Assembly (NCBI GenBank): GCA_017993055.1 | Contig: JAGONM010000020.1 | Span: forward strand, 4,075 to 68,074 | From: Armatimonadota bacterium | GTDB taxonomy: Bacteria; Armatimonadota; UBA5829; DTJY01 | Length of the DNA stretch: 64,000 nt | Direction of reading: 5' to 3' | Part shown: piece after piece, positions 2,280 to 32,856 of the stretch | How the letters are laid out: each line of letters begins with the position of its first letter | How positions within the stretch are numbered: the first letter of the stretch is position 1 | Made by a program: the position numbers and the translations under genes | Notes under the pieces: model-generated | The model's input: the letters and a program-made list of their open reading frames with translations, nothing else | Told to the model about the DNA's origin: nothing | The model's database searches: none

Positions 2280-2290
2280 CCATAGCGGCG

Positions 2291-2330
2291 AAAAGGGGGT
2301 CCGCGTCTACGCGGACCCCCTCAAAACGTT
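2291..2330. terminator. Bidirectional intrinsic terminator hairpin between convergent genes
   Basis: aaaaGGGGGTCCGCG-tcta-CGCGGACCCCCtcaaaacgttt: 11-bp GC stem with a 4-nt loop, A-run upstream and T-containing tail downstream. It lies between the + gene stop (2279) and the - gene stop (2347). Confidence 0.65.
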
Positions 2331-2346
2331 TCCCTTGCCCCGACTG

Positions 2347-3936
2347 CTACAGCTTCTCCAGCCCGAAACCGAACTTCGCGTATCCCGGAATCGAGACGGG
2401 CAGCTTGCCGACAGGTTGTATCCTGCCGAAAAGCATGTCCGCCGCGGCCTGAACTGTCGCGTCCGGGTAACCGTAGGTCGCCACGCTGGCCTTGGCGTCG
2501 GGGTAGTGGCAGAGGTCGTATGGCTCCCGCGCGGCGATGATCACCGCCGGCCTTCCGTTCCCGGTCTCGGACTTCGGGTCCGGCCGCACCAGTTCCCTGG
2601 TCCACGGTTCGGACTGGCAGGTGGTGAGGATGACGACCTTCGACTGCTTGATCAGCTCCCTGACCGCCGCGAGTTCCTTCTCCGTCGGCTCGTTGCTGAT
2701 CCGGGCAAGCCTGGTGTTGGGATGGTACTTCCTGAGCGCGGCGGCGAACTGCTCGGTCGCGGGATGCAGCCCCGCCACCAGGACCTGGTCGGTCTTCATG
2801 AGCTTGAGCGGGAGGACCGCCCCGTCGTTCCTCAGCACGGTGACCGAACTCTCGGCGATCTCGCGCTCGAGGCTTCGGTTGGTCTCCGTCCCGACCGATT
2901 CTCTGACCGTGGAGATGTCCGTTGTCCGCCGCTGATCGAGCCCGTACTCGCTCTTGACGGCCATAATGCGCGCGACCGACTCCTCGATGCGCTCTTCGGA
3001 TATCTCGCCGGACTCGACCGCCTTCAGAAGAGCGGTGCGGATCTGCGCCTGCGCCTCCAATGTGTGGCTCGCGAGCAGAATGTCGGTCCCGGCCTTCACG
3101 GCGAGCACCGACGCTTCCCCGACGCCGTAGTTGGCGGTGACCGCCTTCATCTCCATGCAGTCGGTAACGATCAGGCCGCCGAACCCCATGTGCTTTCGGA
3201 GGAGGCCGGTCAGAACGGCCGGAGAGAGCGTCGCCGGCATGCTGGGGTCGAGCGCGGTGAAGACTATGTGCGTGCTCATGACCATCGCGACTCCGGCCTT
3301 GATGCACGCCCTGAACGGGGCCAGCTCGACCTTGTTCAGCCGTTTGCGCTGATACGGTATGCTCGGCATCGAGAGGTGCGTGTCGGTGGACGTGTCGCCG
3401 TGGCCGGGGAAATGCTTCGCGCAGGCCATGATCCCGTTGGACTGGAAGCCCTCGACCGCCGCCGCCCCGAGTTCGGACACCATCTCGGGCGACTCGCCGT
3501 ACGACCTGATGCCGATGATCGGGTTCAGCGGGTTGTTGTTGACGTCCACGCACGGCGCGAAGTTTGTGTTCACGCCGACGGCGGCCAACTCGCGCGCGAT
3601 CGCCCCGGCGCATTCCCGCGCGAACTCGGCGGAGCGCGTCGCCCCCAGCGCCATGTTGCCCGGGAACGTCGTGAAGGGGTGCTTCATCCGGGTGATGAGG
3701 CCGCCCTCTTGGTCCGCCGCGATGAACATCGGAATGTCCGAGCGCCCCTGAAGCTCGTTCAGGGTGGATGCGATCTGCTCGGGCCCGCGAACGTTTCGGC
3801 CGAGCAGGATTATGCCTCCGACCTTGAAGTCGTCCGTCAGGATCTTGGAATGGGTGCACAGATTCTGGTTGTCGTGCTCGGTCTGTCCCTGCCAGCCGAA
3901 CATGAGCATCTGGCCGATCTTCTCCCTGATGTCCAA
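2347..3936 (-). CDS. Glycoside hydrolase family 3 beta-N-acetylhexosaminidase (NagZ-like) with C-terminal extension
   Basis: KHFPGHGDTSTDTH motif characteristic of the GH3 N-terminal domain. 529 aa. TTG start with GAGAGGTAAGGA RBS. Only 9 nt downstream of the dppA-like stop, so probably an operon. Confidence 0.7.
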   Translation of the reverse strand: MDIREKIGQMLMFGWQGQTEHDNQNLCTHSKILTDDFKVGGIILLGRNVRGPEQIASTLNELQGRSDIPMFIAADQEGGLITRMKHPFTTFPGNMALGATRSAEFARECAGAIARELAAVGVNTNFAPCVDVNNNPLNPIIGIRSYGESPEMVSELGAAAVEGFQSNGIMACAKHFPGHGDTSTDTHLSMPSIPYQRKRLNKVELAPFRACIKAGVAMVMSTHIVFTALDPSMPATLSPAVLTGLLRKHMGFGGLIVTDCMEMKAVTANYGVGEASVLAVKAGTDILLASHTLEAQAQIRTALLKAVESGEISEERIEESVARIMAVKSEYGLDQRRTTDISTVRESVGTETNRSLEREIAESSVTVLRNDGAVLPLKLMKTDQVLVAGLHPATEQFAAALRKYHPNTRLARISNEPTEKELAAVRELIKQSKVVILTTCQSEPWTRELVRPDPKSETGNGRPAVIIAAREPYDLCHYPDAKASVATYGYPDATVQAAADMLFGRIQPVGKLPVSIPGYAKFGFGLEKL

Positions 3937-3945
3937 CTTGCGTCC

Positions 3946-4761
3946 TTACCTCTCTGCGCCGGCGAGTCTCGTCATCGTCAGGAACCCGCGGTACGCTCCC
4001 AGGAAATCGTCCGAAGCGTAGCCGATGGTCGTCGCGTCTTCCCTGACCGCCCCCGGCATGATCCCGGCCGCGTCCGCGAGCCCGGTGTTCGTGAATGCCA
4101 GTTCAAATCTTATAGGCGGTTCCAGGCTGAACGGCTCGAACTCCGGCAGCCTGTCGAACAGTCCAGCCGCCGCCGTCCTGATCCGCTCCCTCGCGGCCTC
4201 CGGGTGAAGGCAGTCGGCCGCGTACCTCGTGATAGGCTCCTTGACCGCGACCGCTTCGACCGGGCCGAGGCTCGACAGCGCCTCCCTGCACGCGGTGGAA
4301 TCGCCGGTCACCATCACCACCGGCACGCCGAAGTATCCCGCCACCGCCGCGTTTATCGTGATCTCGCCCACCAGGCGCGAGTTGAGTTTCGCCGAATAGA
4401 TCGTCCCGTTGTACGTGTGGCTCAGGACCGCCGCCGTCCCGGCTCCCGCGTGATATCCCACGAAGACCGCCGCGTCGAACGTCTCGTCAATTCCCTGCAT
4501 CATCGAGAGCGGAGACCCTCCGCCCGTTATCAGGCGGACCCTCGGGTCGGCCTCCGCGATCTTGATGTTGCGCCCGTTCGCGTGCGAGTCGTTGACGAGA
4601 ATCTCGGTCGCGCCGCCGTCGTAGAGACCTTCCACCGCCGCGCGGAGTTCCCCGGCCATCAGAGCGCGGGCGTCCTCGTATGACGGGTTGCCCGCCGAGG
4701 TCTGTTCCCAGTTCACTACGCCGCTGATGCCTTCCATGTCAACGGAAACGAACACCTTCAC
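3946..4761 (-). CDS. D-aminopeptidase DppA family (peptidase M55)
   Basis: N-terminal KVFVSVDMEGISGV is the typical DppA/M55 start. ORF track gives 3946..4788; trimmed here to a GTG start at about 4761. Confidence 0.6.
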   Translation of the reverse strand: MKVFVSVDMEGISGVVNWEQTSAGNPSYEDARALMAGELRAAVEGLYDGGATEILVNDSHANGRNIKIAEADPRVRLITGGGSPLSMMQGIDETFDAAVFVGYHAGAGTAAVLSHTYNGTIYSAKLNSRLVGEITINAAVAGYFGVPVVMVTGDSTACREALSSLGPVEAVAVKEPITRYAADCLHPEAARERIRTAAAGLFDRLPEFEPFSLEPPIRFELAFTNTGLADAAGIMPGAVREDATTIGYASDDFLGAYRGFLTMTRLAGAER

Positions 4762-4802
4762 GAAACAGACCTCCGCGCGCCCAATCATTCACTGCTTATT
4801 CG

Positions 4803-4831
4803 ATTATATCCCCGCGGGGTTCTTTCGTCAA
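4803..4831 (-). promoter_or_regulatory. Near-consensus sigma70 promoter (-35 TTGACG, 17-bp spacer, -10 TATAAT) reading toward the dppA-nagZ operon
   Basis: Reverse complement of 4803-4831 reads TTGACGaaagaaccccgcggggaTATAAT. It sits in an AT-rich island about 35 nt upstream of the dppA-like start. Confidence 0.5.
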
Positions 4832-4975
4832 GAGTTTTATGTAAACGTTTACTATTTCTTTTCTGCGAGGCAAACGGTGCGTTTGGAGAGAAGCGGGCGA
4901 ATGTATGCTCGCACATCTCCCGCTGACTAAGCCCGTCCCATGCTCTTAACTCGGCATCTGAGATACGATCGGCGC

Positions 4976-6622
4976 CTACTCGTCCGTCGGGTCGTGGATC
5001 CGATAGGTCGCCGCCCCGAGCGTGATTCCCCCGGCAGCTACGGTAAGCGCGACGGCGATCACCGCCGAGGCCGTCATCGCGGGCGGTGCGTGGAGCAACC
5101 ACAAGATGGCGCCGACCGCCAGCGGAGGGCCTATGCTCAACACGCTGAACAGCATGCTCAGCAGGTTCGCTATCCACTGCTGGGACATGTCGCCCCAGTT
5201 GGGGTAGAGCACCGCCACTGTCGTCTGGGAGCAGATCGTTCCGTAGGCGACGAACGGAAGCGCGACACCGGATATGATCATCAGGTCGGAGGTGGGCGCT
5301 CCCAGCAGGAACACCGCCGATCCGAAAAGCAGCCAGATCAACGCCCAGACCATCAGTCCGGCGTTGGCGGTCTCGGCGACCATCAGCCACCACGGTGAGA
5401 TCGGCATCGGCTTGAGGATGTTCACCTGCTTGAGATCGGCCCTGAGCATCTGCCCCATGAACATGGCCAGCATATAGCTCATGTAGAGCGCAATGCCGGT
5501 CATAGCCTGGGGCGCGAGTGCGAGCAGTCCTCTGTCCCTGATGACCGCGCGGCCGAGCAGCGCGGCGACCGGGATGACAATCAGAGCGCCGATCATCGCC
5601 GACCGGCTCATGCGCAGCGAGAGCAGCATGTTCTTCCACAGGATGGCGGTCGCCCCGCGACCGAATGGAGTTACGATCGTGGCCGTCGAATGCTTCCGAC
5701 CGCGCGCCAGCTCAGTGCGAAGCCTGCTGACATCGCCTGACTTCTTTGCCTCTCTGATCAACGCGCTTCTCGTGCTTGCAGCCAGGGACGGCTCGTACGG
5801 GTTCTCCTTCCGTGCGAGCACCATCGCCATGGTCCCGATCGCCATGGTTCCGAGGGCCGCCAACTGCCACGCGTGAGCCGGCTGCCACCCGTTGATGCCG
5901 GCCAAGGCCAGCCCCGACACCCATACCGCGGGCGCCGCTAGCCAGACCAGTATCGGCTGGTGGATCAGCGCAGCGATGGCGGAAGCCGCATCGCCGGTGC
6001 GAGCATATGCCCCGTAGACGGTCGCTCCCGCCAGGACCAGGATGCCGAGTCCCAGCGCCTGCACGGATCTCTTCTGCCACCGCTTCTCCACCGTGCCGTG
6101 TGCCACGATCAGGTTGATGACTGTCGAAAGATTGATGATCGTGATCGCGTAGAGGACGATTGACAGCCAGGCGACCAGGTCCAGGATCGGGATGGACGCA
6201 ACCATTCGAGACGCCTGCATCCCGATGAACACGCCCATCAGGGCTAGCAACAGAGCGAACTTGGCGTATATGGCGCCCAGCTTCAGGCCCATGATGATCC
6301 GACGGTCGATCGGCATGGCGATCAGGACATCCATCTCCGCCTGGCTGTAGATGATCAGGCTGTTCGAGAACGCGTGGGCGATCGCGCCCAGCGAGATCCA
6401 GATCGTGACGAAGAGCAGAATGGACTGCATCATTTCCACGAGCTGTCCCACTATTGGCGGCTGTTGGTTCATTCCCCTGGTGGCAGCGAACGCCTGCATC
6501 AGCACGAAGAAACCTATCCAGACGATGAAGAGCACCGTCGGGATCAGGCGCTTCGGCGTCCGAAGGGTGATCCGGACCAGGTTCGCGAGTTGGCGGCACT
6601 CAAGGTACAGCAGGGGTCTCAA
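4976..6622 (-). CDS. ABC-2 type exporter permease (polytopic membrane protein)
   Basis: 548 aa, highly hydrophobic with many predicted TM segments. Overlaps the upstream ATPase gene by 23 nt. Confidence 0.5.
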   Translation of the reverse strand: MRPLLYLECRQLANLVRITLRTPKRLIPTVLFIVWIGFFVLMQAFAATRGMNQQPPIVGQLVEMMQSILLFVTIWISLGAIAHAFSNSLIIYSQAEMDVLIAMPIDRRIIMGLKLGAIYAKFALLLALMGVFIGMQASRMVASIPILDLVAWLSIVLYAITIINLSTVINLIVAHGTVEKRWQKRSVQALGLGILVLAGATVYGAYARTGDAASAIAALIHQPILVWLAAPAVWVSGLALAGINGWQPAHAWQLAALGTMAIGTMAMVLARKENPYEPSLAASTRSALIREAKKSGDVSRLRTELARGRKHSTATIVTPFGRGATAILWKNMLLSLRMSRSAMIGALIVIPVAALLGRAVIRDRGLLALAPQAMTGIALYMSYMLAMFMGQMLRADLKQVNILKPMPISPWWLMVAETANAGLMVWALIWLLFGSAVFLLGAPTSDLMIISGVALPFVAYGTICSQTTVAVLYPNWGDMSQQWIANLLSMLFSVLSIGPPLAVGAILWLLHAPPAMTASAVIAVALTVAAGGITLGAATYRIHDPTDE

Positions 6623-7391
6623 CTTGTTCGGCCTCTTCGGTGAGCTTGAGGAATACGTCTTCCAGTGTCGCGTCGGAGCGCATCTGAGCGCGCTCGTGCA
6701 GCTCGCCGAGTGTGCCCTCGGTCACGACGTGCCCCCGGTCAATGATAAGTATCCGGTCGCAGAGCCGCTCAGCCGTGTCGAGCATGTGCGTGCTGACCAG
6801 GATCGAGCACCCGGCCGCCTTCGCCTCGAGCATCATGTTCTTCAACTCGCGCGCGCCCTTGGGGTCGACGCCGATCAGCGGCTCGTCGAAAAGGACCACC
6901 TGGGCGTCGTGGATGAATGCGCATGCCACCGCGAGCTTCTGCTTCATGCCCTTCGAGAGCGTCGCCACAAGCTCATTCTTCTTCTCGTCGAGGTCGAACT
7001 TCTCGAGCAGAGAGTTCGCTCTCTCTTCGAACTTGTCGAGGGTGTCGTAGGCCATCGCGATGAATCTGAGGTGCTCGTGGACGGTGAGCATCTCGTAAGG
7101 GTTCGGCGTCTCGGGGACGAACGCGAGGTTCTTCTTCGCGCCGGTCTCGTCCTTCGCCAGGTCGTGCCCGGCGACTTCGATGCGCCCGGAGGTAGGCCGG
7201 ATTATGCCGGCGATGGAGCGCAGGATGGTCGTCTTCCCAGCGCCGTTCGGGCCGAGCAGCCCGAGGATCTCACCGTCGGCGACGGTGAAACTGATGCCGT
7301 CCACGGCGAGCGTGGTCTTGTACTGCTTCCTCAACTGGTCTACGATCAGCACGTGCTTGCTCCCTGTCGAGCGCATCAGTTCGCCGGGCAC
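6600..7391 (-). CDS. ABC transporter ATP-binding protein
   Basis: Walker A GPNGAGKTT, ABC signature LSKGMKQKL and Walker B VVLFDEP. Confidence 0.8.
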   Translation of the reverse strand: MPGELMRSTGSKHVLIVDQLRKQYKTTLAVDGISFTVADGEILGLLGPNGAGKTTILRSIAGIIRPTSGRIEVAGHDLAKDETGAKKNLAFVPETPNPYEMLTVHEHLRFIAMAYDTLDKFEERANSLLEKFDLDEKKNELVATLSKGMKQKLAVACAFIHDAQVVLFDEPLIGVDPKGARELKNMMLEAKAAGCSILVSTHMLDTAERLCDRILIIDRGHVVTEGTLGELHERAQMRSDATLEDVFLKLTEEAEQVETPAVP

Positions 7392-7403
7392 CGGTCACTT
7401 CCC

Positions 7404-8219
7404 CTACCGCATCTCCTGCCCGCCGGTGACGTTGATCGCCTGGCCCGTCATGTAGCTCGACTGCTCGGACGCCAGGAAGACCACCACGTTCGTCACATCA
7501 TCGTAGGCGCATCCTCGTCCGAGCGGCACCTGGCCGAGGTACTTCTCCTTCACCTGCTCGACGGTGATCCCCTGCGTGCGCGCGTACTGCTCGAAGAGGC
7601 TGTCCTGCCAGAGCGTGCCGTCGAGGAGGTTGCCGGGGCAGATCGCGTTCACCCGGACGCCGTGCGGCGCCATCTCAAGCGCGAGGCTCTGCGTCAAACC
7701 GATCCCGCCGAACTTGCTCGCGGCGTAGGCGGAGTTCTTGAAACTGCCCTTCTTGCCGGACTTCGAGTTGATCTGGATGATGTTTCCGCTCTTCTGCGCG
7801 ACCATCACCTTCGCCGCCTCGCGTGCGCAGATGAAGTAGCCGACGAGGTTTACATCTATCACCTTCCGCCAGTCGGCTGTCGAGAACTCGGTGACCTCCT
7901 CCGCCTTGAGGATTCCGGCGTTCGAGACCATGATGTCGAGCTTGCCGAACTCCCGGACGGCAAGTCGAACCATCTCGACGACCTGCTCGTCGTTCGTGAC
8001 GTCCACCTTGAAGCCGACGGCCTTACGACCGGTGGTCTTGACGATGTCCTCCGCGACCTTCTGCGCGTTCTCGAAGACGATGTCGCCCAGGAGGACATCG
8101 CATCCCTCGGCCGCGAGTCGCCGGGCAATCGCCTCGCCAAGCCCCTGCCCGGCGCCCGTCACGATGGCGGCCTGCCCCGCCAATGCCTTGCACTCAATCA
8201 CGCTCTTACTCCTCGTCAT
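7404..8219 (-). CDS. SDR family NAD(P)-dependent oxidoreductase (sorbitol-6-phosphate dehydrogenase-like)
   Basis: AIVTGAGQGLGEAIA glycine-rich motif, NAG, and YAASKFGG catalytic Y-x3-K. The ORF-track N-terminus (MGRMGHMGPM) is an artefact of the ATGGGAC repeat array, so trimmed to the ATG at 8217-8219. Confidence 0.75.
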   Translation of the reverse strand: MTRSKSVIECKALAGQAAIVTGAGQGLGEAIARRLAAEGCDVLLGDIVFENAQKVAEDIVKTTGRKAVGFKVDVTNDEQVVEMVRLAVREFGKLDIMVSNAGILKAEEVTEFSTADWRKVIDVNLVGYFICAREAAKVMVAQKSGNIIQINSKSGKKGSFKNSAYAASKFGGIGLTQSLALEMAPHGVRVNAICPGNLLDGTLWQDSLFEQYARTQGITVEQVKEKYLGQVPLGRGCAYDDVTNVVVFLASEQSSYMTGQAINVTGGQEMR

Positions 8220-8268
8220 AGGCCCCATATGTCCCATCCGTCCCATCCGTCTAATAGGACGAATGGGC
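8220..8268. repeat. Family B array of 9-bp periodic ATGGGAC/GTCCCAT units
   Basis: ggccccatatGTCCCATccGTCCCATccgtctaataggacgaATGGGCCtag. Fills the whole 49-nt spacer between the MDR stop and the SDR start. Confidence 0.55.
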
Positions 8269-9972
8269 CTAGCCGGCCATCACCCTCAGCAGCTCCGCCT
8301 CCGCCTCGCGGTTCCAGAACATGCCGTCGGTGAGTTTCGCGTAGACCGTCGGCAGCTTGTCCTTCAGATCGGGCACCGCCGTCAGCGGGAGGTCCTTGAT
8401 CTGCGGATAGATCACGACCTTGCCGGGATACGTCCCTTCCTTCGCCGCCTTCATGCCCTCCCACGACGCCTCGATCCCGCCGATCGCCGCCACCGACGTG
8501 TTTGTCGAGATCTTGCCCGACTCGGCCGCGTGGAGCGTGTCGAGCATGTCGCTTACCTTCGAGCCGCTGCTGCCCACGAACCGGACGTTGCTCATGAAGA
8601 CGCCGCTCAGGTCCATGCTCACGATCGTGCCGATCGGCACTCCCGCGAAGATGTTCATCAGGCCCTCGTCGGCGAGGTATCCCACCGCCTGCTCGATCAA
8701 TGCAGGCACGGGCGCGAGCATCACGATGTCGTCGAAGCAGTTGCCGTCCGTGAACGCCTCGATCAGCTTGTCGAAATCGTCCGCGCTCATCTCGTTCGGG
8801 TTCACGATAAGGAGCTCGATGCCGCGCCTCCGGGCTATCGGCTCGAACCGCTCGCGCAGGCTGTTCAGGCGCGCGGTGTCAATATCGGTGGCGAGCACCT
8901 TCTTCGGGCCGTCCTCCATTTCGAGCGCGCGCGGGAGGTGCATCTGCCCCATCGGTCCGCCCGTGCCTACGAACCACGCCGTCCCGCCGGCTCTCAACTC
9001 GCTCGGCATGCGGACCGGCTCGTAAGCGGATCCGATGTGCCTGCTCATCGTGCCGATGTAGGAGTGGTTCCAGTAGTGGACCTTGCCGACGTCTATGTTG
9101 ATCGGGCGGGTGAGCGGCTCCTCTGAGACGATGTTCATGATCCCCTGCTTGCCGAGGAGCGTCGCCGCCTTCTCGATCACATCCGGGTTCGCGCCGAGCA
9201 CGATTATGTCGTCGAAGCCGCCGTGCTTCTGCTCGAACGCCTCGAAGTCAATGGACTCGAAGGCGTCGGTCTCCCTCAGCTTGAAACGGCCGGCCTCCGA
9301 CCAGAACTTGAGCTGGTCCATCATCGGCCAGTCGAGTTCCGTCGCGACCACCAGCTCGGGCTCCACCTCGAAGTCGAGCGCGTAGTCGCCGTCGTCCATC
9401 GCCGCGCCGATGATCCAGAGCTTCCCGCCGGGCTTGATTGACTTCCGGCGGGTTATCTTGTAGCTCGCCACGACGCAAGCCCAGGGCTCGGCGAGAGCGG
9501 CCTCGGCGTATCCGGTCGAGTCGGCCATAGGTAGCAGGTAGCATCCCTCGTCGCCGTCGAGCATCTCCTTGCCGATCACCTGGTACTGGGTCTGCGCGCC
9601 GGGGAGGACGTACCCGAAGGCCATGCTCACGCCGTTCACGAAGACGTCGGCCTGGACGGTGAACCGCTGGCCGATCTTGAACCGGTCCGCCACCTTCTCG
9701 CCGACGCCCACGACGGTGACCGCCGCCTCGTGGCCGAGCGTAACGGGGTCATTCACCATATCGCGCCCGGTGATCCGGGGGTGCAGGTTGCCCTGGTTGA
9801 TCACCTTGATGTCGCTGAAGCAGATGCTCACGGCATCCACCCGGACCAGAAGCTCCTCCGGCCCGTACTCCGGCATCGGGTGCTCAACCGGCTTCCCGTC
9901 CTTGCCGAAGTTCTCCAGCCCCGCGCCGTAGAGATACCAGGTCAGTATCTTATCAGGAAGTGTATCGCTCAT
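8269..9972 (-). CDS. Zinc-binding alcohol dehydrogenase (MDR) family protein with C-terminal extension
   Basis: GHEAAVTVVGVG zinc-ADH signature in the N-terminal half. 567 aa. Confidence 0.5.
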   Translation of the reverse strand: MSDTLPDKILTWYLYGAGLENFGKDGKPVEHPMPEYGPEELLVRVDAVSICFSDIKVINQGNLHPRITGRDMVNDPVTLGHEAAVTVVGVGEKVADRFKIGQRFTVQADVFVNGVSMAFGYVLPGAQTQYQVIGKEMLDGDEGCYLLPMADSTGYAEAALAEPWACVVASYKITRRKSIKPGGKLWIIGAAMDDGDYALDFEVEPELVVATELDWPMMDQLKFWSEAGRFKLRETDAFESIDFEAFEQKHGGFDDIIVLGANPDVIEKAATLLGKQGIMNIVSEEPLTRPINIDVGKVHYWNHSYIGTMSRHIGSAYEPVRMPSELRAGGTAWFVGTGGPMGQMHLPRALEMEDGPKKVLATDIDTARLNSLRERFEPIARRRGIELLIVNPNEMSADDFDKLIEAFTDGNCFDDIVMLAPVPALIEQAVGYLADEGLMNIFAGVPIGTIVSMDLSGVFMSNVRFVGSSGSKVSDMLDTLHAAESGKISTNTSVAAIGGIEASWEGMKAAKEGTYPGKVVIYPQIKDLPLTAVPDLKDKLPTVYAKLTDGMFWNREAEAELLRVMAG

Positions 9973-14067: not shown

Positions 14068-14134
14068 CTGCCTCCTCGCGAAGTTTGACAGTCCCCGGTA
14101 CGGGTGGTATACTCCGAATAGACGCATGAACACA

Positions 14135-14235
14135 GCCGCTAGGGGTGCGTGGCGGAAACGCCCGCTGAGAGTCCCGCTCGACGGGACAACCCTCTGAACC
14201 TGATCCCGGATAATCCCGGCGTAGGGAAGCGGACG
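14135..14235 (+). promoter_or_regulatory. TPP (thiamine pyrophosphate) riboswitch / THI-box upstream of thiC
   Basis: aGGGGTGCgtggcggaaacgcccgCTGAGAgtcccgctcgacgggacaACCCTCTGAACCTGATCCCGGATAATCCCGGCGTAGGGAAgc matches the conserved THI-element cores (GGGGUGC, CUGAGA, ACCUGAUC.GGAUAAU.CCGGCG.AGGGA). Confidence 0.85.
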
Positions 14236-14446
14236 CGACGATCAGACGCCGTGTGCCCGCGATGAGGCCCACGGCGTTTTGTATGCGGAGAACACGGAAG
14301 CACGGAGGGAAACGGAACACACCGAGTTTCGCGAGGAAGCCATCAAAGCAGGAAAGGGAACTCCCGGTTTCCTGATACGGCACCCTTTTCCGTGACCTCC
14401 GCTTCCATCCGTTCAATCCGCGTTCTCCGAAAGAACGGTGAGGCAT

Positions 14447-27171: not shown

Positions 27172-27201
27172 CCTGTCCGACCGGTCAGACAAGTCGGACT
27201 C
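27172..27201. repeat. Family A array bridging a stop codon and a start codon
   Basis: GTCCGACcgGTCAGACaaGTCGGAC at 9-bp spacing. Overlaps the stop of the 27185 gene and ends 1 nt before the sulfatase ATG (27171). Confidence 0.6.
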
Positions 27202-29116
27202 CCTGCGAAATCCACACGGGGCTGAGCCAGGCGATCTGGTTGTCCTCCTGGGTGACCCTGATGTAGTAGAACGTGAACGGCGCCGCCGAGTACTCTGCAG
27301 GCGGCAGGTTGATCCCCCCGAGCGGCTCGGAGTCGAGCCATTCGAACTCCGCGTCCGGTCCGTCCGGACGGACCGTGTGGACATCGGCGTTGTTGCGGAC
27401 GATCTCGATCGTCTTGATCTTGGACGTGCCGTGGACAGACACCTTGATCCGCCGCTCGTCCGCGAGTCCCGGGTGCTCCGAGAGGCTGACCTCCGAGCCC
27501 ATCGGGTGGCCGCTGACCGAGAAGTCCGCGATGATCCGCGCTCCTGTCGTCCCATAGCAGCGCCGGTCGTAGAGAGCCTCGAATATCGCCTCGCGAGTGT
27601 TCTCACGCGCGTACACCGCCGCCAGTCCGCCGGTGTACGTGCCCGTCGGTTTGATGCGGACCGTGCCGTCGCTCGGATGGCCTGAGTGGTCGTCGCTCGC
27701 GGCGATGAAACCGACGCGCCACCCCATCGCCAGCGCGCGCTGGACGTAGCCGAGCGGGTTGATCCCCGAGTTCGGGTTGCGCTCATTCACCGGCGACCCC
27801 GGAAGGATGTTCCCGTCCTCGATGCTCCGCTCGGAGCACCCCCAGTAAGAGTATATCTCGACGAGCCGCTCCTTCGAGGGGTTGTGGTCCTTCCAGTCGT
27901 TGTGGTTGCCGATGTGCGCCGGGTGGTGCGGGATGACGAGCGCCTCCTCTTCCTTGAGCGCTCGGAAGAGGTCCGGCGGACTGGGATAGGCGTCGTCGTC
28001 CGACCGGTACATCGGCCGCCGGTCGCGCAGGTAGTAGACGTTCCGGTCGCCGTCGCCCCTCTTTCGCCACTTTGCCCACTCGTAACCGAGGAACGCGGTG
28101 AACCGCCCCGGCTCATTGTATCTTGCGACGGCCTCCTGGCTGAGCGCCCATATCTCGTCGGTGATCTGCTCGCCGTGATCATGGTCGGCGGTCGAGCCGA
28201 AGTCGATCGCGCACTCGTCGCGCATCTGCGAGAAGTACCGGTCGAGCGAGCCGGTGCCGTCGGAGACCTGCGTGTGCCCGTGGATCGAGCCCCAGAGCAC
28301 TTGCGGCGCGCCGTCCGCGGGGACTCGGATCGGGTTCGCGGTTGCCCTGAAGCCGTTCGACGTGTCCGCGACCTCGAGCCGGTAGACGCCCTCTCCCGGC
28401 AGGGCGATCCCTTCGAGTCGGCAGCAGTTCGATCCCTCGACCGCGATGCGCTCTGCGGGGATCTCCAGACCGTCCAGCTGGACGAGCAGCTCTCCGGGAG
28501 CGGCGCAGGCGAGGTTGTAGTTCTTGTCCTCGGGCCTGACCAGCAGGGCAATGCTCTCACCGTGAGAGGCGGTGCTGGGCGCGTGAACGCGGATCGAGAT
28601 CGGATCGCTCCCGGAGACGTCCATCATGCAGAGGCCGATCAGTTCCTCCGGCCGTTCGCCGTAGAGCAGGGGATGCCTCAACTCCGTGCCCGCCGGGACC
28701 TTGTGCAGGAGGAAGAATCTGCTTGAGACCGAGAACTTCGGCGCTGGGATTCCCGCAGGCCCGCCGAGTTCGGCGCGCAGCCTGTCGCCCTGCTTGAGGC
28801 CGACCGGCGGCGTCTCGAAGCAGAACACTCCCCCGTCGTCGGTCGCCCCCCTCGGTGTGAGCGTTCCGGACTCCGAGCGGAGCGACAGATAACCCTCGGC
28901 GGATTCGTCCTGCGCCTGGAAGCCCGGCCAGCGGCTCGCCCCGTTTCGCCCGCCGTGGACGTGCAGCCACAGGTCCTCCCCCGGCGAGACGTCCTGCGCA
29001 AGCACGAACGAGAGCGTCCATGATCCTCGCTCGTCCGCCTTGGCACAGGGTGGATCGGCGGCGCACATCTCGATGTATTCAGGAACTCTCAGGGGGCGAC
29101 TTGGTTTGTTGATCAT
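27185..29116 (-). CDS. DUF3604-like PHP-type metal-dependent phosphoesterase family protein
   Basis: LWGSIHGHTQVSDGTG and ADHDH motifs (PHP-like) in the C-terminal half. 643 aa. Confidence 0.4.
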   Translation of the reverse strand: MINKPSRPLRVPEYIEMCAADPPCAKADERGSWTLSFVLAQDVSPGEDLWLHVHGGRNGASRWPGFQAQDESAEGYLSLRSESGTLTPRGATDDGGVFCFETPPVGLKQGDRLRAELGGPAGIPAPKFSVSSRFFLLHKVPAGTELRHPLLYGERPEELIGLCMMDVSGSDPISIRVHAPSTASHGESIALLVRPEDKNYNLACAAPGELLVQLDGLEIPAERIAVEGSNCCRLEGIALPGEGVYRLEVADTSNGFRATANPIRVPADGAPQVLWGSIHGHTQVSDGTGSLDRYFSQMRDECAIDFGSTADHDHGEQITDEIWALSQEAVARYNEPGRFTAFLGYEWAKWRKRGDGDRNVYYLRDRRPMYRSDDDAYPSPPDLFRALKEEEALVIPHHPAHIGNHNDWKDHNPSKERLVEIYSYWGCSERSIEDGNILPGSPVNERNPNSGINPLGYVQRALAMGWRVGFIAASDDHSGHPSDGTVRIKPTGTYTGGLAAVYARENTREAIFEALYDRRCYGTTGARIIADFSVSGHPMGSEVSLSEHPGLADERRIKVSVHGTSKIKTIEIVRNNADVHTVRPDGPDAEFEWLDSEPLGGINLPPAEYSAAPFTFYYIRVTQEDNQIAWLSPVWISQGVRLV

Positions 29117-29139
29117 TCATCCAACCTCGAGTATCTGTT

Positions 29140-29619
29140 CCGGGCGACTGAAGTCACGGCAACAAAGGCGCGAAGTCCACCTCCGTGGACTGAGGTATCC
29201 AGTGTCCGAAGGGACACTTCGTGCAGTGGTTGCCGCGGTTTCAACCGCCGGGTTTCATCTCACTTACTTTCTTGTACGGCTCCGGCACGGTGACGAACCT
29301 GAATCCCCGCGCCTTCAGCGCCGCCGACGTGGCAGATGCATGTATGTACCGGGCGACTGAAGTCACGGCAACAAGGGCGCGAAGTCCACCTCCGTGGACT
29401 GAGGTATCCAGTGTCCGAAGGGACACTTCGTGCCGTGGTTGCCGCGGTTTCAACCGCCGGGTTTCATTTCACTTACTTCCTTGTACAGGTCCGGCACCGT
29501 GACGAACCTGTCACCCTCAGCTATGTACCGGGCGACTGAAGTCACGGCAACAAGGGCGCGAAGTCCACCTCCGTGGACTGAGGTATCCAGTGTCCGAAGG
29601 GACACTTCGTGCCGTGGTT
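29140..29619. repeat. Tandem triplication (about 209 + 179 + 92 bp) of the 3' coding end of gene 29620-31323 plus a two-hairpin 3'UTR element
   Basis: Unit is ccgggcgactgaagtcacggcaacaagggcgcgaagtccacctccgtggactgaggtatccagtgtccgaagggacacttcgtgc... plus gene-3' remnants encoding LKARGFRFVTVPE(L/P/D)YK(E/K)VSEMKPGG. Hairpins GTCCAC-CTCC-GTGGAC and AGTGTCC-GAAG-GGACACT. Confidence 0.7.
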
Positions 29620-31323
29620 TCAACCGCCGGGTTTCATCTCACTTACTTCCTTGTACAGCTCCGGTACCGTGACGAACCTGAATCCCCGCGCCTTCAGTTC
29701 CGGGATCAGCGTTTTCAGCGCCGCGGGAACCGACGGTCCGCCGACGTGGCAGATGCACGTGCTGTAACCCGTCCGATCGGCGATCTCCGCCATCGCAAGC
29801 ACCCGAGCCCGCACGCCCTCGACCTGCCGGTCGTCGAGGAACAGGTCCTGCTGGAGGCACGGTACGCCCATCGCCCGCGCGACGTTCGCTCCGATCGCGA
29901 CCGGAGACGTGTTCGAGTCGTAGAACATCAGCCCGTGTTTCTTCGCCACTGAGAGAACGCTCTTCATCGTCTCCGGGTCGCTCGTCACCTTCGACCCGCG
30001 GTGGTTGCTGATTCCGACCTCGTGCGTCACCAGCACCATCCAGCTCTCCAGAAGCTCCCTGATCTCAGACTCGGTCTGCCCGACGGTGATCTCCTCGCTG
30101 CGGTAGTTCGCCTGCCCGAGCGCCTCCATCGGCGCGTGCAGGAAGATCGCGCAGCCCGCCGACCTGATCGCCTCGACGCAGGCCGGGGTCGCCCACGGCA
30201 TCACCGCGAACGTCATCGGTATCCCCAGGTCGAGAAGCGGCTTCACCTGCTCGACCTCCCGCCCATCGTCCACCATGATCGCGAGCAGTTTCTCCGGCCC
30301 GGTCCACTTCGAGGCAAACGGCTCCAGTCCCAGCCCACCGCCGCCGACACCCAGGTATGAGGAATAGAGCGGTGCCCCGTCGGACGTGTTCAGCCGCGCG
30401 GTGAAGTAGTCCCTGGAGCCGTTGTGCTCCGTCTTGTAAGCCTTTGCTGTCACGGGGAAGTCGTCGGAGCGCGTGAACCCCGTCACATATACCGCGCTGC
30501 TCCGGTCAACCGATACCGCGTCGGCGGTGTCTTCCGCCTTCCCGCCGAGCAGAGCGATCCAGGCGAGCTTCCCGGGGCTGTCAACCCGCGCTACGAAGCA
30601 ATCCGCGCCGGGGGAGCATACCGTGCCCGACAGGAATGCGTTGTTACTCGAGTCGTACATCACCCGCTTGCCTCTCGCGAGCGGCCACCCGCGTCCGAGC
30701 GCTTCCGAGAGAAGCTTCCCGGCCTCGTCCGGCGTCAGGCTCTTCGCGGCGGATTCGATCTTGACGCGGGTGATGTCAGTTCCCACTGCGGCGCAGGTGA
30801 CCTTGCCGCCGTCCACCGTGAATGTCAGGGTCACACCCGGCCACAGGTCCCGGTATGCGACTCCCTTGAACGTTGGGACGTCGGCAGTCCACTTCGAAGG
30901 ATCGTTCCCGATGATGTACCGGGCCTTCGCGGGCTGCTCCTCGAGACCCTCTATCTTCGCGCCGGAGCCCGTCTCCCGGAAGCTGATGCGGACGGTCTCG
31001 ACCTCAACCGCGGGGATCGGCCTTCGCCTCTCCGCGACCGCGTCGCGCAGGTCGGCGGGGACCTCCGAGTCGTTCTTGGCCGGGGAGGCGGCGCCGGTCT
31101 TGCGGCAGAGGGTGATCGAATCCCTGGTGACGAGCGCAGATCCTTCCGGCCCCGGGATGATGAACAGAACGTCCCTGTCTGATTGGCCCTCGTTCCGGAT
31201 GACCGGAGGCGAGAGCGGCGGGAGCGCGACCTGAGCCGGCCGTTGGCCGTACTCCTGGGCTGCCGACGGGATGGGGACAAAGAGCAATGCGAAGAGCAGC
31301 AGTCGTGCGCGGTGACCCGTCAT
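29620..31323 (-). CDS. Secreted protein: SBBP beta-propeller repeats plus divergent polysaccharide deacetylase (YibQ-like) domain
   Basis: YVTGFTRSDDFPVT SBBP-like repeat. C-terminal LAIMVDDG...MTFAVMPW...ICHVG resembles PF04748. Signal peptide. ATG 31323 with AAAGGTAAG RBS; ORF-track GTG at 31329. Confidence 0.45.
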   Translation of the reverse strand: MTGHRARLLLFALLFVPIPSAAQEYGQRPAQVALPPLSPPVIRNEGQSDRDVLFIIPGPEGSALVTRDSITLCRKTGAASPAKNDSEVPADLRDAVAERRRPIPAVEVETVRISFRETGSGAKIEGLEEQPAKARYIIGNDPSKWTADVPTFKGVAYRDLWPGVTLTFTVDGGKVTCAAVGTDITRVKIESAAKSLTPDEAGKLLSEALGRGWPLARGKRVMYDSSNNAFLSGTVCSPGADCFVARVDSPGKLAWIALLGGKAEDTADAVSVDRSSAVYVTGFTRSDDFPVTAKAYKTEHNGSRDYFTARLNTSDGAPLYSSYLGVGGGGLGLEPFASKWTGPEKLLAIMVDDGREVEQVKPLLDLGIPMTFAVMPWATPACVEAIRSAGCAIFLHAPMEALGQANYRSEEITVGQTESEIRELLESWMVLVTHEVGISNHRGSKVTSDPETMKSVLSVAKKHGLMFYDSNTSPVAIGANVARAMGVPCLQQDLFLDDRQVEGVRARVLAMAEIADRTGYSTCICHVGGPSVPAALKTLIPELKARGFRFVTVPELYKEVSEMKPGG

Positions 31324-31518
31324 TGACACTTACCTTTCCGGAAGGCAAAGAGGAACGCGGGGATGAATCGTCCCGCGCTCCTCCCTATGTTCGCTACCCG
31401 CTCTACGGTTTCCTCATCGCGGAAGAAGCACGATCTGCTCAGTAGGGGCGAAGCATTGGCTATCGGGCTCAGAGAGCCATCCGCGCCAAACGCCAATGCT
31501 TCGCCCCCACAGTGACCT

Positions 31519-32802
31519 CTACTTCAGGAACAACTCCACCACCGGCACCGCGACGCCCGGCTTCTTCTGCGGCAGCTCCAGGGTCAGAGCGCCCGCCTGG
31601 CCCTGCATGGTCGTGTTCTGCGCCTGCGCGTGCGGGTCAATCTCCGTCATCTTCACCTCGGACGCATCGTTCAGAAGCTGCGCGTACTCCACCTTGCCCG
31701 CGAGCCCATCGAGGTGGACATGCTTGTACGGCCATGCGAAGAGATGCAGGTAGAGCCGCTTGCCGTTCTGCGTGAACCGCGCGTCCTGCGGTGCTGTGAA
31801 CTCGCTCTGGGAGCACCCGTAGATCGAGCGGTTGTGCAGGCGCATCCATTCGCCGATCGCCCGCAGCCGCTCTATGGCCCTCGGATCTATCTCGCCCCGC
31901 GCGTTCGGGCCGACGTTGAGCAGGAGGTTGCCGCCCTTCGAGACGGTGTCTATCAGCGTGCGGATCAACTCGTCCGGCTCGCGCCAGCTGTGCTCGTCGC
32001 GGTAGTATCCCCAACTCCCGCTGAAGGTCTGGCACGCCTCCCAGATCACCGGCTTGCCGTCCACCTTCACCCACTCCCGCGGCTGATACTGCTCGGGCGT
32101 CTTGATGTCCCAGGCGTCCGGCAGATCGAGTCGGTCGTCCAGCAGGACGTGCGGCTGAAGCTCGCGGATCATCTTCACGAGCCTCTCGGACTGCCAGTCG
32201 TCGCGTCCCTTGCCCTTTGACCAGCCGTAGTCCGCGTGAGGGTAGGAGAAATCGAACCACATGATGTCCACGCGTCCGAACCTGGTGAGCAGTTCGCGCG
32301 CCTGGCCGTGGAGGTACTCGACGTACTTGCTCATGTCGCGTCCCTTGTTTGCCTCGCGGAACTCCTCGTTGTTGCGCATCGGATGCAGGCCGTCAACTGT
32401 GAACTCGGGGTGATGCCAGTCAATGAGCGAGTGGTAGAACCCGACCTTCAGTCCCTCCTCGCGGAATGCCTCGACCATGGGGCTCAGGAGATCCCGCCCG
32501 GCGGGGGTGTTCGGCGCCTTGTAGTCAGTCAGGTAGGAGTCCCAGAGGCAGAAGCCGTCGTGATGCTTTGAGGTCACGACGAAGTACTTCATGCCGGCGT
32601 TCCTCGCCTCCTGCGCCCAGACTCCGGGGTCGTAGAGGTCGGGATCGAAGTGCTCGAAGTACTTCTGGTAGGCCTCGTCCGGAATCTGCTCGTAGTGCTT
32701 GATCCACTCGTGCCGGGCCGCCGCGGAATAGATCCCCCAGTGGATGAACATGCCGAACCGGTCTCGCACGAACCATTCCGAGTCGCCTTTTGCGTATTCC
32801 AT
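31519..32802 (-). CDS. Alpha-L-fucosidase, glycoside hydrolase family 29
   Basis: FGMFIHWGIYS...KYFVVTSKHHDGFCLWDS is the GH29 catalytic core. Trimmed to ATG 32802 (GGAGAGG RBS). The ORF-track N-terminus MGPMSPTGPM is a repeat-array artefact. Confidence 0.85.
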   Translation of the reverse strand: MEYAKGDSEWFVRDRFGMFIHWGIYSAAARHEWIKHYEQIPDEAYQKYFEHFDPDLYDPGVWAQEARNAGMKYFVVTSKHHDGFCLWDSYLTDYKAPNTPAGRDLLSPMVEAFREEGLKVGFYHSLIDWHHPEFTVDGLHPMRNNEEFREANKGRDMSKYVEYLHGQARELLTRFGRVDIMWFDFSYPHADYGWSKGKGRDDWQSERLVKMIRELQPHVLLDDRLDLPDAWDIKTPEQYQPREWVKVDGKPVIWEACQTFSGSWGYYRDEHSWREPDELIRTLIDTVSKGGNLLLNVGPNARGEIDPRAIERLRAIGEWMRLHNRSIYGCSQSEFTAPQDARFTQNGKRLYLHLFAWPYKHVHLDGLAGKVEYAQLLNDASEVKMTEIDPHAQAQNTTMQGQAGALTLELPQKKPGVAVPVVELFLK

Positions 32803-32820
32803 AGGTTGTTCCTCTCCAGG

Positions 32821-32856
32821 CATAGGTCCCGTGGGACTCATGGGCCCCATGCCGGC
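32821..32856. repeat. Family B array
   Basis: CATAGGTCC CGTGGGACT CATGGGCCC CATGCCGGC, between the esterase stop (32866) and the fucosidase start (32802). Confidence 0.55.

Follow-up and report, generated by a model that had tools for sequence, protein, structure and literature searches.

The 3' end of a YibQ-like gene is repeated behind the gene, and each repeat carries the same strongly structured segment. Where does such an array come from, and is the structured segment an RNA element, a recombination site, or a mobile DNA? In the window, the whole 64-kb stretch of DNA that was analysed, three tandem units follow one another (29140-29348, 29349-29527, and 29528-~29765), each composed of the 3' end of a DUF7948/YibQ-like gene and an imperfect palindrome of ~113 nt. 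With a probability of about 85%, we read these as three tandem REPIN-like doublets of a family linked to Y1 transposases, inserted in the last codons of the gene and then locally duplicated together with a piece of it.

Tandem copies of a gene end and a palindrome

A search for direct repeats returned one family with three copies (29136-29301, 29345-29510, and 29524-29689), spaced 209 and 179 nt apart, and a MAFFT alignment showed that the gene 3' end and the structured segment are common to all three units. A 43-nt core with both hairpins is found exactly three times in the window and never in 100 shuffles, and the 112-nt segment folds at -59.9 kcal/mol (z = -6.3 for the gene strand, z = -5.2 for its complement). 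The tandem triplication of a gene 3' end with a two-hairpin element, as proposed in the first-pass annotation, is thereby borne out, and the orphan ORF fragments it had listed are present, with tails ...KARGFRFVTVPEPYKKVSEMKPGG. Two details needed revision: the internal deletion of the distal copy, given as 43 nt, measures 38 nt (39 with a 1-nt indel), and the two hairpins come from two separate inverted 52-nt units. No other copy of the element was found in the window by blastn. The array escapes TRF, owing to the large indels by which the units differ. The features of the locus are the following.

29620..31323, minus strand: DUF7948 and divergent polysaccharide deacetylase (YibQ-like) gene, 567 aa (Pfam PF25778, 6e-21; PF04748, 1e-48)
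29528..29631, no strand: REPIN C (gene-proximal), left unit 29589-29631 (-), 9-nt spacer, right unit 29528-29579 (+)
29462..29527, minus strand: co-duplicated flank of unit B, with head TACATAG, a shortened remnant, and the last 48 nt of the pre-insertion coding sequence (...RFVTVPDLYKEVSEMK)
29349..29461, no strand: REPIN B, units 29410-29461 (-) and 29349-29400 (+), 9-nt spacer
29253..29348, minus strand: co-duplicated flank of unit A, with head TACATAC and ~130 nt of the gene 3' end carrying a 38-nt internal deletion
29140..29252, no strand: REPIN A (distal), units 29201-29252 (-) and 29140-29191 (+), matching covariance model R1 at 69.2 and 71.7 bits
29113..29139, minus strand: what is left of the ancestral C-terminal codons, now displaced (NRYSRLDE and TGA), the TGA overlapping the ATG of the DUF3604 gene (ATGA)
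27185..29116, minus strand: DUF3604 gene (Pfam PF12228, 8e-22), a called gene in L001

In the alignment, the diverged units are distinguished by deletions of 38 nt, ~90 nt, and 9 nt. The 9-nt deletion (GCGGCAACC) removes part of the outer stem of the left unit of REPIN C, whose R1 matches score 45.5 and 71 bits; it is private to the window strain and absent from the related contigs L003, L007, and L008. REPIN B matches R1 at 74.5 and 71 bits, folds with z = -6.3, and aligns end to end with doublets of 11 other loci. The flanks of units B and A lie in ORFs at 29450..29623 and 29241..29453, and repeat D3 pairs 29321-29343 in the flank of unit A with 29738-29760. Both internal junctions coincide with the exact outer REPIN end (…GTCGCCCGG|TACATA…), and the TACATA head is found at both. 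Between copies, the REPIN parts vary at 2 sites per 113 nt plus one indel, and the co-duplicated coding flank at 6 per 48 nt; the differences (A>G, G>C, G>A, and T>C) are without adenine bias.

An insertion before the ancestral stop codon

In NCBI MAG GCA_020047475.1, the called YibQ-like gene has 567 aa; no record of the exact 569-aa ORF form was found, and the form starting at ATG with 567 aa is the one recorded. Its last three codons (PGG) and TGA stop lie within the first repeat unit, the palindrome beginning inside the coding sequence, and the DUF3604 gene is now 503 nt downstream of that stop. When the block is removed in silico, ...GAGATGAAA joined to the remnant reads ELYKEVSEMKNRYSRLDE* in frame and ends at the ATGA overlap. 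The orthologues in L004, L005, and L006 are without the element and end in ...ELYKALAGK* or ...ELYEALNSGVRGQESE*, and L006 has the same ATGA stop/start overlap with DUF3604. Comparison with the orthologues shows that the element inserted 8 codons upstream of the ancestral stop, splitting a translationally coupled pair of genes. Insertion of the doublet changed the tail from NRYSRLDE to PGG, the new stop being the TGA in the TGAA loop that is invariant in the unit, and parted the gene from its formerly ATGA-overlapping DUF3604 neighbor. No target-site duplication is visible. The doublet of the window lies inside an ORF and not in the extragenic location by which REPINs are recognized; intragenic REPs are on record (PMC3733652).

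Might the array instead store alternative C-termini, as a cassette-like reservoir from which recombination varies the protein tail, a suggestion also made in the first-pass annotation? The gene 3' end of other strains (CACCGTGCC, with the 9 nt) is nearer to the distal copies of the window than to the window's own proximal copy, a resemblance that could be due to gene conversion between copies. A reservoir is nevertheless very improbable, because all copies yield a near-identical tail (…VPE/D L/P YKE/K VSEMKPGG) which is created by the insertion itself and is absent from orthologues. Moreover, copy B is down to 16 codons, the same repeat is found at hundreds of unrelated loci, and neither a recombinase nor a reverse transcriptase is present, nor are the substitutions concentrated at adenines. 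A DGR (TR/VR) was rejected on the lack of adenine bias and of an RT among the called genes within ~5 kb.

The array in independent assemblies

An assembly artefact, or a chimera of strain variants put together from short reads in a MAG, would also produce tandem copies. The source MAG is fragmented (contig JAHZTK010000910.1), and the related contigs L003, L008, and L009 end within the repeat. However, the diagnostic junctions recur at 97-99% identity in four further assemblies, which were made from different samples and with different assemblers. The gene-REPIN-copy B junction (REPIN-TACATAG-copy B) is found in L007 and L008, and L008 has the same segment as the flank of unit B with 4 substitutions; the junction of the last (A-type) REPIN with AACAGATAC and DUF3604 is found in L009 and L010, where REPIN A with its diagnostic C>T also lies upstream of DUF3604. 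The exact repeats are shorter than 100 nt and therefore spannable by 150-nt reads. An artefact, a concern of the first-pass annotation, is scarcely credible. Every strain sampled has the array, and across strains that are ~2.8% diverged overall, REPIN C shows 0 substitutions (one 9-nt indel), REPIN B shows 1, and the 66-nt flank of copy B shows 4.

A bipartite unit with two covarying hairpins

The ~113-nt palindrome consists of two convergent copies of a 52-nt two-hairpin unit, 9 nt apart, and the window holds three such convergent pairs with 9-nt spacers, each forming one hairpin, as REPINs do. The layout of the unit is CCGGGCG-nn-TGAA-n'n'-CGC-GGCAACnAnGGCnCGAAG-hairpin: hairpin A has 5 bp and a TGAA loop, hairpin B has 7 bp and a CTTC-like loop, and the conserved linker between them is GGCAACnAnGGCnCGA. 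Eighty-three units align without gaps, and both hairpins covary, with 97.2% of cells paired, where shuffles give 84% and sliding gives ~32%; pair 8-15 is AU in 36 and GC in 34 units, and pair 9-14 is AU in 26, UA in 22, and CG in 19. Eleven doublets from other loci and two window copies align end to end, and all 13 fold alike. In the alignment, the 52-nt consensus has no conserved GTAG/CTAC or CGTC/GACG tag inside it or at its ends.

Covariation of this kind is compatible with a role at the DNA level or at the RNA level alike and cannot separate them. The element could be a functional RNA in a 3'UTR or between cistrons, acting as mRNA stabiliser, partial terminator, or translation damper, with the array tuning the YibQ-like/DUF3604 ratio; by exaptation, such a role can hold in addition to a mobile-DNA origin. 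REP sequences of Escherichia coli affect mRNA stability and termination. Here, the structure on the transcribed strand is strong (z = -6.3), the stop codon lies within hairpin A, the array is retained in all sampled strains, and variation is lower in the REPIN parts than in the co-duplicated coding flank, both between copies and in the strain comparison given above (0 and 1 versus 4 substitutions). Gene conversion could equally account for the last observation, as could the need to be recognized by the transposase. No U-tract terminator is present, the symmetric doublet folds equally on both strands, no Rfam family matches it, and the partner shared across the family is a transposase gene rather than a class of genes. 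We consider an RNA function rather unlikely as the explanation of the element.

Several structural classes were dropped along the way. A scan for intrinsic terminators gave one weak consensus match, no better than shuffles, and no T-run follows the palindromes, which removes the intrinsic terminator. Rfam searches (locus, E <= 10; window, gathering score) returned nothing relevant at the locus, only chance miRNA and CRISPR-DR matches; elsewhere in the window, Rfam recognizes a TPP riboswitch. A tRNA-like element was rejected as no tRNA was found, and CRISPR repeat and ribozyme readings were considered and dropped.

A dispersed family associated with Y1 transposases

The first-pass annotation had left room for the hairpin element being unique, and it is not. 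The palindrome centre is copy-specific, and the exact central 23-mer GGACACTGGATACCTCAGTCCAC has 0 matches in genome contigs and 0 in metagenome contigs; the family was found with a pattern on positions common to both arms. This degenerate pattern matches at least 120 stretches of GTDB species genomes, chiefly from MAGs of Longimicrobium/Longimicrobiaceae and Armatimonadota, a breadth that, like the linker conservation, is biased by a search built from the window's own arms. Covariance model R1 yielded ~460 further unit copies at Armatimonadota and Longimicrobiaceae (Gemmatimonadota) loci, including 175 matches in 100 loci and 34 more in L111-L130. At least 23 loci occur in one Longimicrobium MAG and at least 16 in one Armatimonadota MAG. 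Within the 64-kb window, units are present at one locus only: R1 finds exactly 6, all within the array, and the next best match scores 10 bits. Other tandem arrays of the family are found in L169 (period 140 nt x 4.4) and L091. A concatenated six-frame translation of the element had no match among 5.8 billion proteins.

Convergent pairs of units have spacers of 8 to 513 nt, or 8 to 314 nt apart from L082, whose 513-nt spacer holds a Y1_Tnp gene (Pfam PF01797, 4e-24). In both Longimicrobiaceae and Armatimonadota, a Y1 transposase gene, annotated as IS200-like or RayT, lies between convergent unit pairs. On an Armatimonadota (Chthonomonadaceae) contig, L211, the Y1 gene is flanked by the sole two units in 5.4 kb, and R1 units are present in 69 of the 80 metagenome loci that encode relatives of the transposase (250 matches). 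In those 80 loci the typical layout is unit(+)-gene-unit(-), and tandem arrays often lie beside the gene. Many homologues carry the JGI name "REP element-mobilizing transposase RayT". Among NCBIfam models, the transposase passes the IS200 equivalog NF033573 (72.5 bits, above the cutoff of 55) and does not pass the RAYT model NF047646 (21.9 bits, below the cutoff of 80); a RAYT-like group within IS200 has been described (Bertels et al. 2017). No Y1 gene and no further unit exist elsewhere in the 64-kb window.

The association suggests mobilisation by the Y1 transposase. Y1 genes are flanked by these units in the convergent layout of the doublet itself, and the doublet is therefore most likely a derivative that has no transposase of its own and is moved in trans as single-stranded DNA. 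We class it as REPIN-like and non-autonomous, a member of a dispersed repeat family associated with the transposase.

Relation to known repeat systems

The closest parallels are the REPIN-RAYT systems of Pseudomonas fluorescens SBW25 and the REP/BIME sequences of E. coli (PMC3116915). Shared with them are an inverted doublet of a short palindromic unit that forms one long hairpin, many dispersed copies in genomes other than that of the window, the occurrence as singlets, doublets, and ordered tandem clusters with flanking sequence, and inverted units flanking a small Y1 transposase gene, with clusters beside it (here L082, L211, and the 69 metagenome loci). The array corresponds to the "tandemly repeated REPIN cluster including flanking sequence" of P. 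fluorescens SBW25. The family differs in its 52-nt unit with two hairpins and a conserved 16-nt linker, in place of one 20-40-nt palindrome; in having neither the GTAG tag nor the unpaired CGTC tag of classical REPs; in a partner transposase that scores as IS200 and not RAYT in NCBIfam; and in its hosts, Armatimonadota and Gemmatimonadota.

RAYT genes with long TIRs, described by Di Nocera et al. 2013 (PMC3733652), likewise have ~50-nt inverted repeats unrelated to GTAG REPs that also occur without the gene; the sequence family is another one, and tight doublets and tandem arrays are common here. IS200/IS605 elements and PATEs resemble the family in the Y1 HUH transposase (PF01797, NF033573), in subterminal hairpins at the ends, and in lacking a target-site duplication. 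Classical IS200/IS605 ends carry two different hairpins on one strand and no terminal inverted repeats, whereas in L082 and L211 the ends are the same 52-nt unit inverted. MITEs such as the Correia elements of Neisseria are also short, TIR-bounded, non-autonomous elements at or inside gene ends that can supply a stop codon, and the spacers of 8 to 513 nt resemble a deletion series leading to a gene-bearing parent; no target-site duplication is seen here, and the partner is a Y1 HUH enzyme rather than a DDE transposase.

An attC-like site, another suggestion of the first-pass annotation, fits in outline, with an imperfect palindrome, AAC…GTT inner boxes, a branched centre, and a position at or overlapping a stop codon. 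Yet the boxes CGGCAAC/GTTGCCG misfit RYYYAAC/GTTRRRY, the unit boundary lies 20 nt beyond GTT where attC has it at G|TT, what would be the "cassettes" are pieces of the gene upstream, and the family is dispersed and tied to a Y1 transposase, attC sites being linked to IntI. The attC reading was abandoned.

Local duplication or transposition of the gene end

How was the gene end multiplied? Under the preferred reading, a segment of ~140 nt of the gene 3' end plus the REPIN, perhaps with a few nt beyond, was tandemly duplicated twice after the insertion, presumably by unequal or microhomology-mediated recombination or by replication slippage at the palindrome. The copies later decayed through deletions between short direct repeats. 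The decaying tandem duplication among the first-pass options fits this local history of diverged copies with deletions. Of its options, a structured element promoting its own duplication came closest, the element being tied to a transposase; its action as RNA in a 3'UTR would be conjectural.

The transposase itself could also have made the tandem units. Alternative cleavage in the gene would have released an extended circle of gene 3' end and REPIN, which reinserted beside a resident REPIN end, and CCCGG|TACATA would be the circle junction. The internal junctions coincide with the outer REPIN end and share the TACATA head, and tandem REPIN arrays are enriched beside transposase genes. IS200/IS605-type enzymes form single-stranded circular intermediates (PMC6006769), and Bertels & Rainey inferred "a second mechanism" for ordered clusters (PMC3116915). 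Against this, the microhomology at the junctions (CGG/TAC) suits plain illegitimate recombination equally well, and the detail comes from one locus with putative cleavage sites. We regard a direct role of the transposase in building the array as unlikely. Similarly doubtful is the broader proposal that aberrant transposase action lets REPIN-type elements take along adjacent host sequence, here 60-140 nt of a gene 3' end, and insert it again beside themselves, combined with a spread of REPINs and Y1 transposases across phyla.

Implications for the locus and the family

The oddity of this locus probably has an ordinary cause: a REPIN-like element truncated the tail of a gene, uncoupled two overlapping genes, and seeded a tandem array. 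It is a known kind of bacterial repeat, whose family was itself not found described for Armatimonadota or Longimicrobiaceae. No earlier report of it in Armatimonadota/Gemmatimonadota was found; a term search of two REP/REPIN papers (PMC3733652 and 10.1101/2021.07.10.451892) turned up neither phylum, and in a literature search combining the two phyla with REP, the REP term occurs in none of the 10 best-listed matches.

The family is defined by a bipartite unit of two covarying hairpins with a conserved linker, a partner Y1 clade, and a usable covariance model. These should help the annotation of MAGs from soil phyla that have been little studied and whose contigs often end at such repeats. It also offers a test case for the origin of ordered, flank-bearing REPIN clusters and for the movement of REPINs and RAYTs between phyla; REPIN/RAYT-type systems are thought to be mostly vertically inherited. 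If the tandem units were made by the transposase, there would be a transduction-like route to the duplication of gene ends. In addition, on this doubtful broader proposal, the near-identical 52-nt consensus in Armatimonadota and Gemmatimonadota would document a cross-phylum spread of REPINs with their Y1 transposases.

Tandem array at the end of the YibQ-like gene

This feature is a cluster of REPIN-like elements in tandem, together with a co-duplicated gene flank. Two extra tandem units adjoin the 3' end of the YibQ-like gene, and a repeat search of the window and the alignment of the three units bore out the tandem triplication of a gene 3' end and hairpin element described in the first-pass annotation:

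29620..31323, minus strand: YibQ-like gene, 567 aa, Pfam DUF7948 and Polysacc_deac_2
Starts 29136, 29345 and 29524: direct repeat family in three copies, spaced 209 and 179 nt

Each unit consists of a piece of the 3' end of the gene followed by a common structured segment. A 43-nt core that includes both hairpins is present three times in the window and in none of 100 shuffles, and a 112-nt segment folds with z = -6.3 and -5.2 against shuffles on the two strands. Three deletions have shortened the copies: one of 38 nt, between CTGAA/GCGG short repeats, one of about 90 nt, and one of 9 nt. The first of these, given earlier as a 43-nt deletion in the distal copy, measured 38-39 nt in the unit alignment; the last, 9 nt of the outer stem missing from the proximal copy, is private to the window strain compared to related strains.

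The earlier interpretation is partly supported, and tandem copies with later deletions agree with it. Its cassette reservoir for C-terminal variation does not stand, since the copies encode one tail, itself supplied by the insertion, nor does an attC site, whose boxes and boundaries misfit. We also rejected a DGR (differences between copies show no adenine bias, and the called genes within about 5 kb include no RT), an intrinsic terminator (no U-run in a terminator scan), and a known RNA family (no Rfam match to the array). A separate element of the window is a TPP riboswitch aptamer:

14131-14244, plus strand: TPP riboswitch aptamer, scored at 68.2 bits (gathering score 54.3)

The junctions of the array recur in 97-99% identical contigs from other samples, so the array is not the assembly artefact considered earlier. 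Two related strains (L007 and L008) read gene, palindrome, TACATAG, and copy B, with L008 continuing into the next palindrome; two others (L009 and L010) begin in the last palindrome, marked by a diagnostic C>T, and run through AACAGATACTCGAGG into the DUF3604 gene. The array is therefore older than the strain divergence of about 2.8%. Short-read contigs of related strains break inside repeat units (ends of L003 at 4034 and L008 at 2861, starts of L009 and L010), and contigs in MAGs of Armatimonadota and Longimicrobiaceae probably often break at copies of the 52-nt unit family described below.

Ancestral state and insertion point

Comparison with orthologous loci, as proposed earlier, located the insertion point. 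The palindrome is absent from three orthologues (L004, L005, and L006; 70-79% identity), whose C termini read ...ELYKALAGK*, ...ELYKALTGK*, or ...ELYEALNSGVRGQESE*, and in L006 the YibQ-like stop and the start codon of DUF3604 overlap (ATGA). Similarity between window and orthologues stops past TACAAGG. Excising the block that starts with the first CCCGGCGG and ends with the last CGCCCGG joins GAG ATG AAA to AAC AGA TAC TCG AGG TTG GAT GAA TGA in frame, and the restored TGA overlaps the DUF3604 ATG exactly as in L006. Read from these alignments, an insertion of about 500 nt lies 8 codons ahead of the ancestral stop; it swapped the tail NRYSRLDE for PGG and parted two genes that formerly overlapped by ATGA. 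Since the palindrome begins within the ORF, it includes the stop and the PGG codons. The gene order of L005 (73% orthologue; 1-8466) is fucosidase, DUF3604, YibQ-like, methyltransferase, whereas DUF3604 directly follows the YibQ-like gene in the window (27185-32850) and in L006; this local rearrangement sets the L005 lineage apart and is independent of the repeat insertion.

A family of 52-nt units

The exact central 23-mer of the palindrome is absent from the two public collections searched, one of genomes and one of metagenomes. With positions differing between the palindrome arms set to N, the arm pattern TGAANNCNCGGCAACNANGGCNCGAAG matched at least 120 stretches in GTDB species genomes; among the matches listed, nearly all come from Longimicrobium/Longimicrobiaceae (Gemmatimonadota) or from one of several Armatimonadota lineages, individual MAGs having many loci. 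A gap-free alignment of 83 units gives the 52-nt consensus CCGGGCG-nn-TGAA-n'n'-CGC-GGCAAC-nAn-GGC-n-CGAAG-TCCGCC-TTCG-style hairpin-CT. Both hairpins, each wholly or partly beyond the arm search pattern, covary strongly: paired cells reach 97.2%, compared with 84% for shuffles and about 32% for slid partners. At pair 8-15 the counts are AU 36 / GC 34, at pair 9-14 they are AU 26 / UA 22 / CG 19, and hairpin B has double changes at four pairs.

A covariance model of the unit (R1) detects six units in the window and no others (remaining scores ≤10.4 bits); they form three convergent pairs with 9-nt spacers. The hairpin element is not unique, a possibility the first-pass annotation had allowed for: the covariance search found 175 units in 100 loci fetched by the arm pattern and 34 more in the other 20. 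The unit is common to Armatimonadota and Gemmatimonadota (Longimicrobiaceae).

The only arm-pattern match outside these phyla, among the matches listed, lies in an Ignavibacteria MAG (L087, 7519-7545). Its flanks have no hairpins and R1 recovers no unit there, which makes a chance match within other sequence probable. In ten Longimicrobium loci (L013, L019, L026, L029, L042, L046, L054, L102, L112, and L130), a diverged second unit in the same orientation, GGCGGGTTGAAACCCGCCGCTG…AAGTCCGCCTTCGCGGAC (R1 30-45 bits), often lies about 100 nt downstream, reminiscent of BIME composites but different from the convergent doublet. In the Armatimonadota MAG 21I_069.bin.27 (L037, L039, L051, L052, L086, L111, L114, and L117-L119), the unit forms the 5' portion of a roughly 150-nt repeat, …GGACTGAGAAGGGCCTGGTTCGGGCGTCCGGAGGACGC…GAGGTATTTCAATGCCTCGCGGCC, often with TAGCCACC upstream; in some copies an insertion, TTTTATCCCC…, replaces hairpin B. 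Such a repeat could represent a second non-autonomous element, larger in size and sharing the common end.

Doublets and a Y1 transposase

Convergent pairs with hairpin B inside recur in other genomes, with spacers of 8, 8, 12, 15, 16, 18, 26-29, 35-39, 60 … 314 nt (R1 on arm-pattern loci), and 11 doublets from other loci align end to end with two window copies. At one locus (L082), a 513-nt spacer holds a gene for a 134-aa Y1 transposase (Pfam Y1_Tnp, 4e-24), which scores 72.5 bits with the NCBIfam IS200 equivalog (cutoff 55) and 21.9 bits, below the cutoff of 80, with the NCBIfam RAYT model. Units were found at 69 of 80 metagenome loci encoding its relatives (47-73% identity; 250 hits in 189 kb), typically as unit(+)-gene-unit(-), often with tandem arrays beside the gene (period 140 nt × 4.4 copies at L169). 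The association is thus general. A Chthonomonadaceae (Armatimonadota) contig has only two units in 5.4 kb:

2423-2474, plus strand: unit
2501-2908: Y1 gene
2912-2963, minus strand: unit

Homologues are named "IS200/IS605 family transposase" by NCBI and, in many JGI records, "REP element-mobilizing transposase RayT". The Y1 enzyme would mobilize the doublets in trans, acting on single-stranded DNA.

Origin and divergence of the copies

The internal junctions, …GTCGCCCGG|TACATA(G/C)…, fall exactly at the REPIN end, and their head is similar to the gene (GGGTTACAGCAC) and also to the sequence past the last REPIN (AACAGATAC). The array may have arisen by microhomology-mediated duplication or slippage at the palindrome, and a circle junction made by the transposase would fit equally well. 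Comparing the copies shows 6 variable sites over 48 nt of coding flank, and 2 over 113 nt of REPIN along with one indel; comparing the strains shows, for copy B, 4 changes in the 66-nt flank versus 1 in the REPIN. Fewer changes in the REPIN than in the co-duplicated flank suggest that constraint or homogenization acts on it, which either recognition by the transposase or an exapted role as RNA or DNA could explain. The functional gene end in the window (29665, 29668) reads CACGGTACC, that of L003, L007, and L008 and the distal copy CACCGTGCC, and copy B CACGGTGCC, a mosaic that could be gene conversion between array copies.

Relation to known REP/REPIN systems

REP/REPIN-RAYT systems likewise have short palindromic units, inverted replicative doublets, and units flanking a Y1 transposase. 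The specific higher-order form of the array matches the REPIN clusters of Bertels and Rainey (PMC3116915), where every unit has a REPIN between a 5' flank and a shorter 3' flank; 16 such clusters were found in SBW25 and put down to a "second mechanism." In Di Nocera et al. (PMC3733652), long TIRs unrelated to GTAG REPs flank RAYT genes, and families of such TIRs are moderately abundant. The present family differs in its bipartite 52-nt unit, in having no GTAG or CGTC tag across the 83-unit alignment, and in a transposase that is IS200-like by curated models, although a RAYT-like group exists within IS200 (Bertels et al. 2017). Its hosts also appear new: we found no mention of Armatimonadota or Gemmatimonadota in the REP/REPIN papers term-searched (PMC3733652 and 10.1101/2021.07.10.451892), and the REP term was absent from the 10 top-ranked matches of a full-text search pairing these phyla with it.

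The TGAA loop of hairpin A, invariant in the alignment (columns 10-13), provides the TGA stop of the truncated gene (29620-29622), and an in-frame insertion of the 52-nt unit anywhere would immediately terminate the ORF. The kind of repeat is already known; what seems new, within the literature searched, is a REP/REPIN-type family in Armatimonadota and Longimicrobiaceae.
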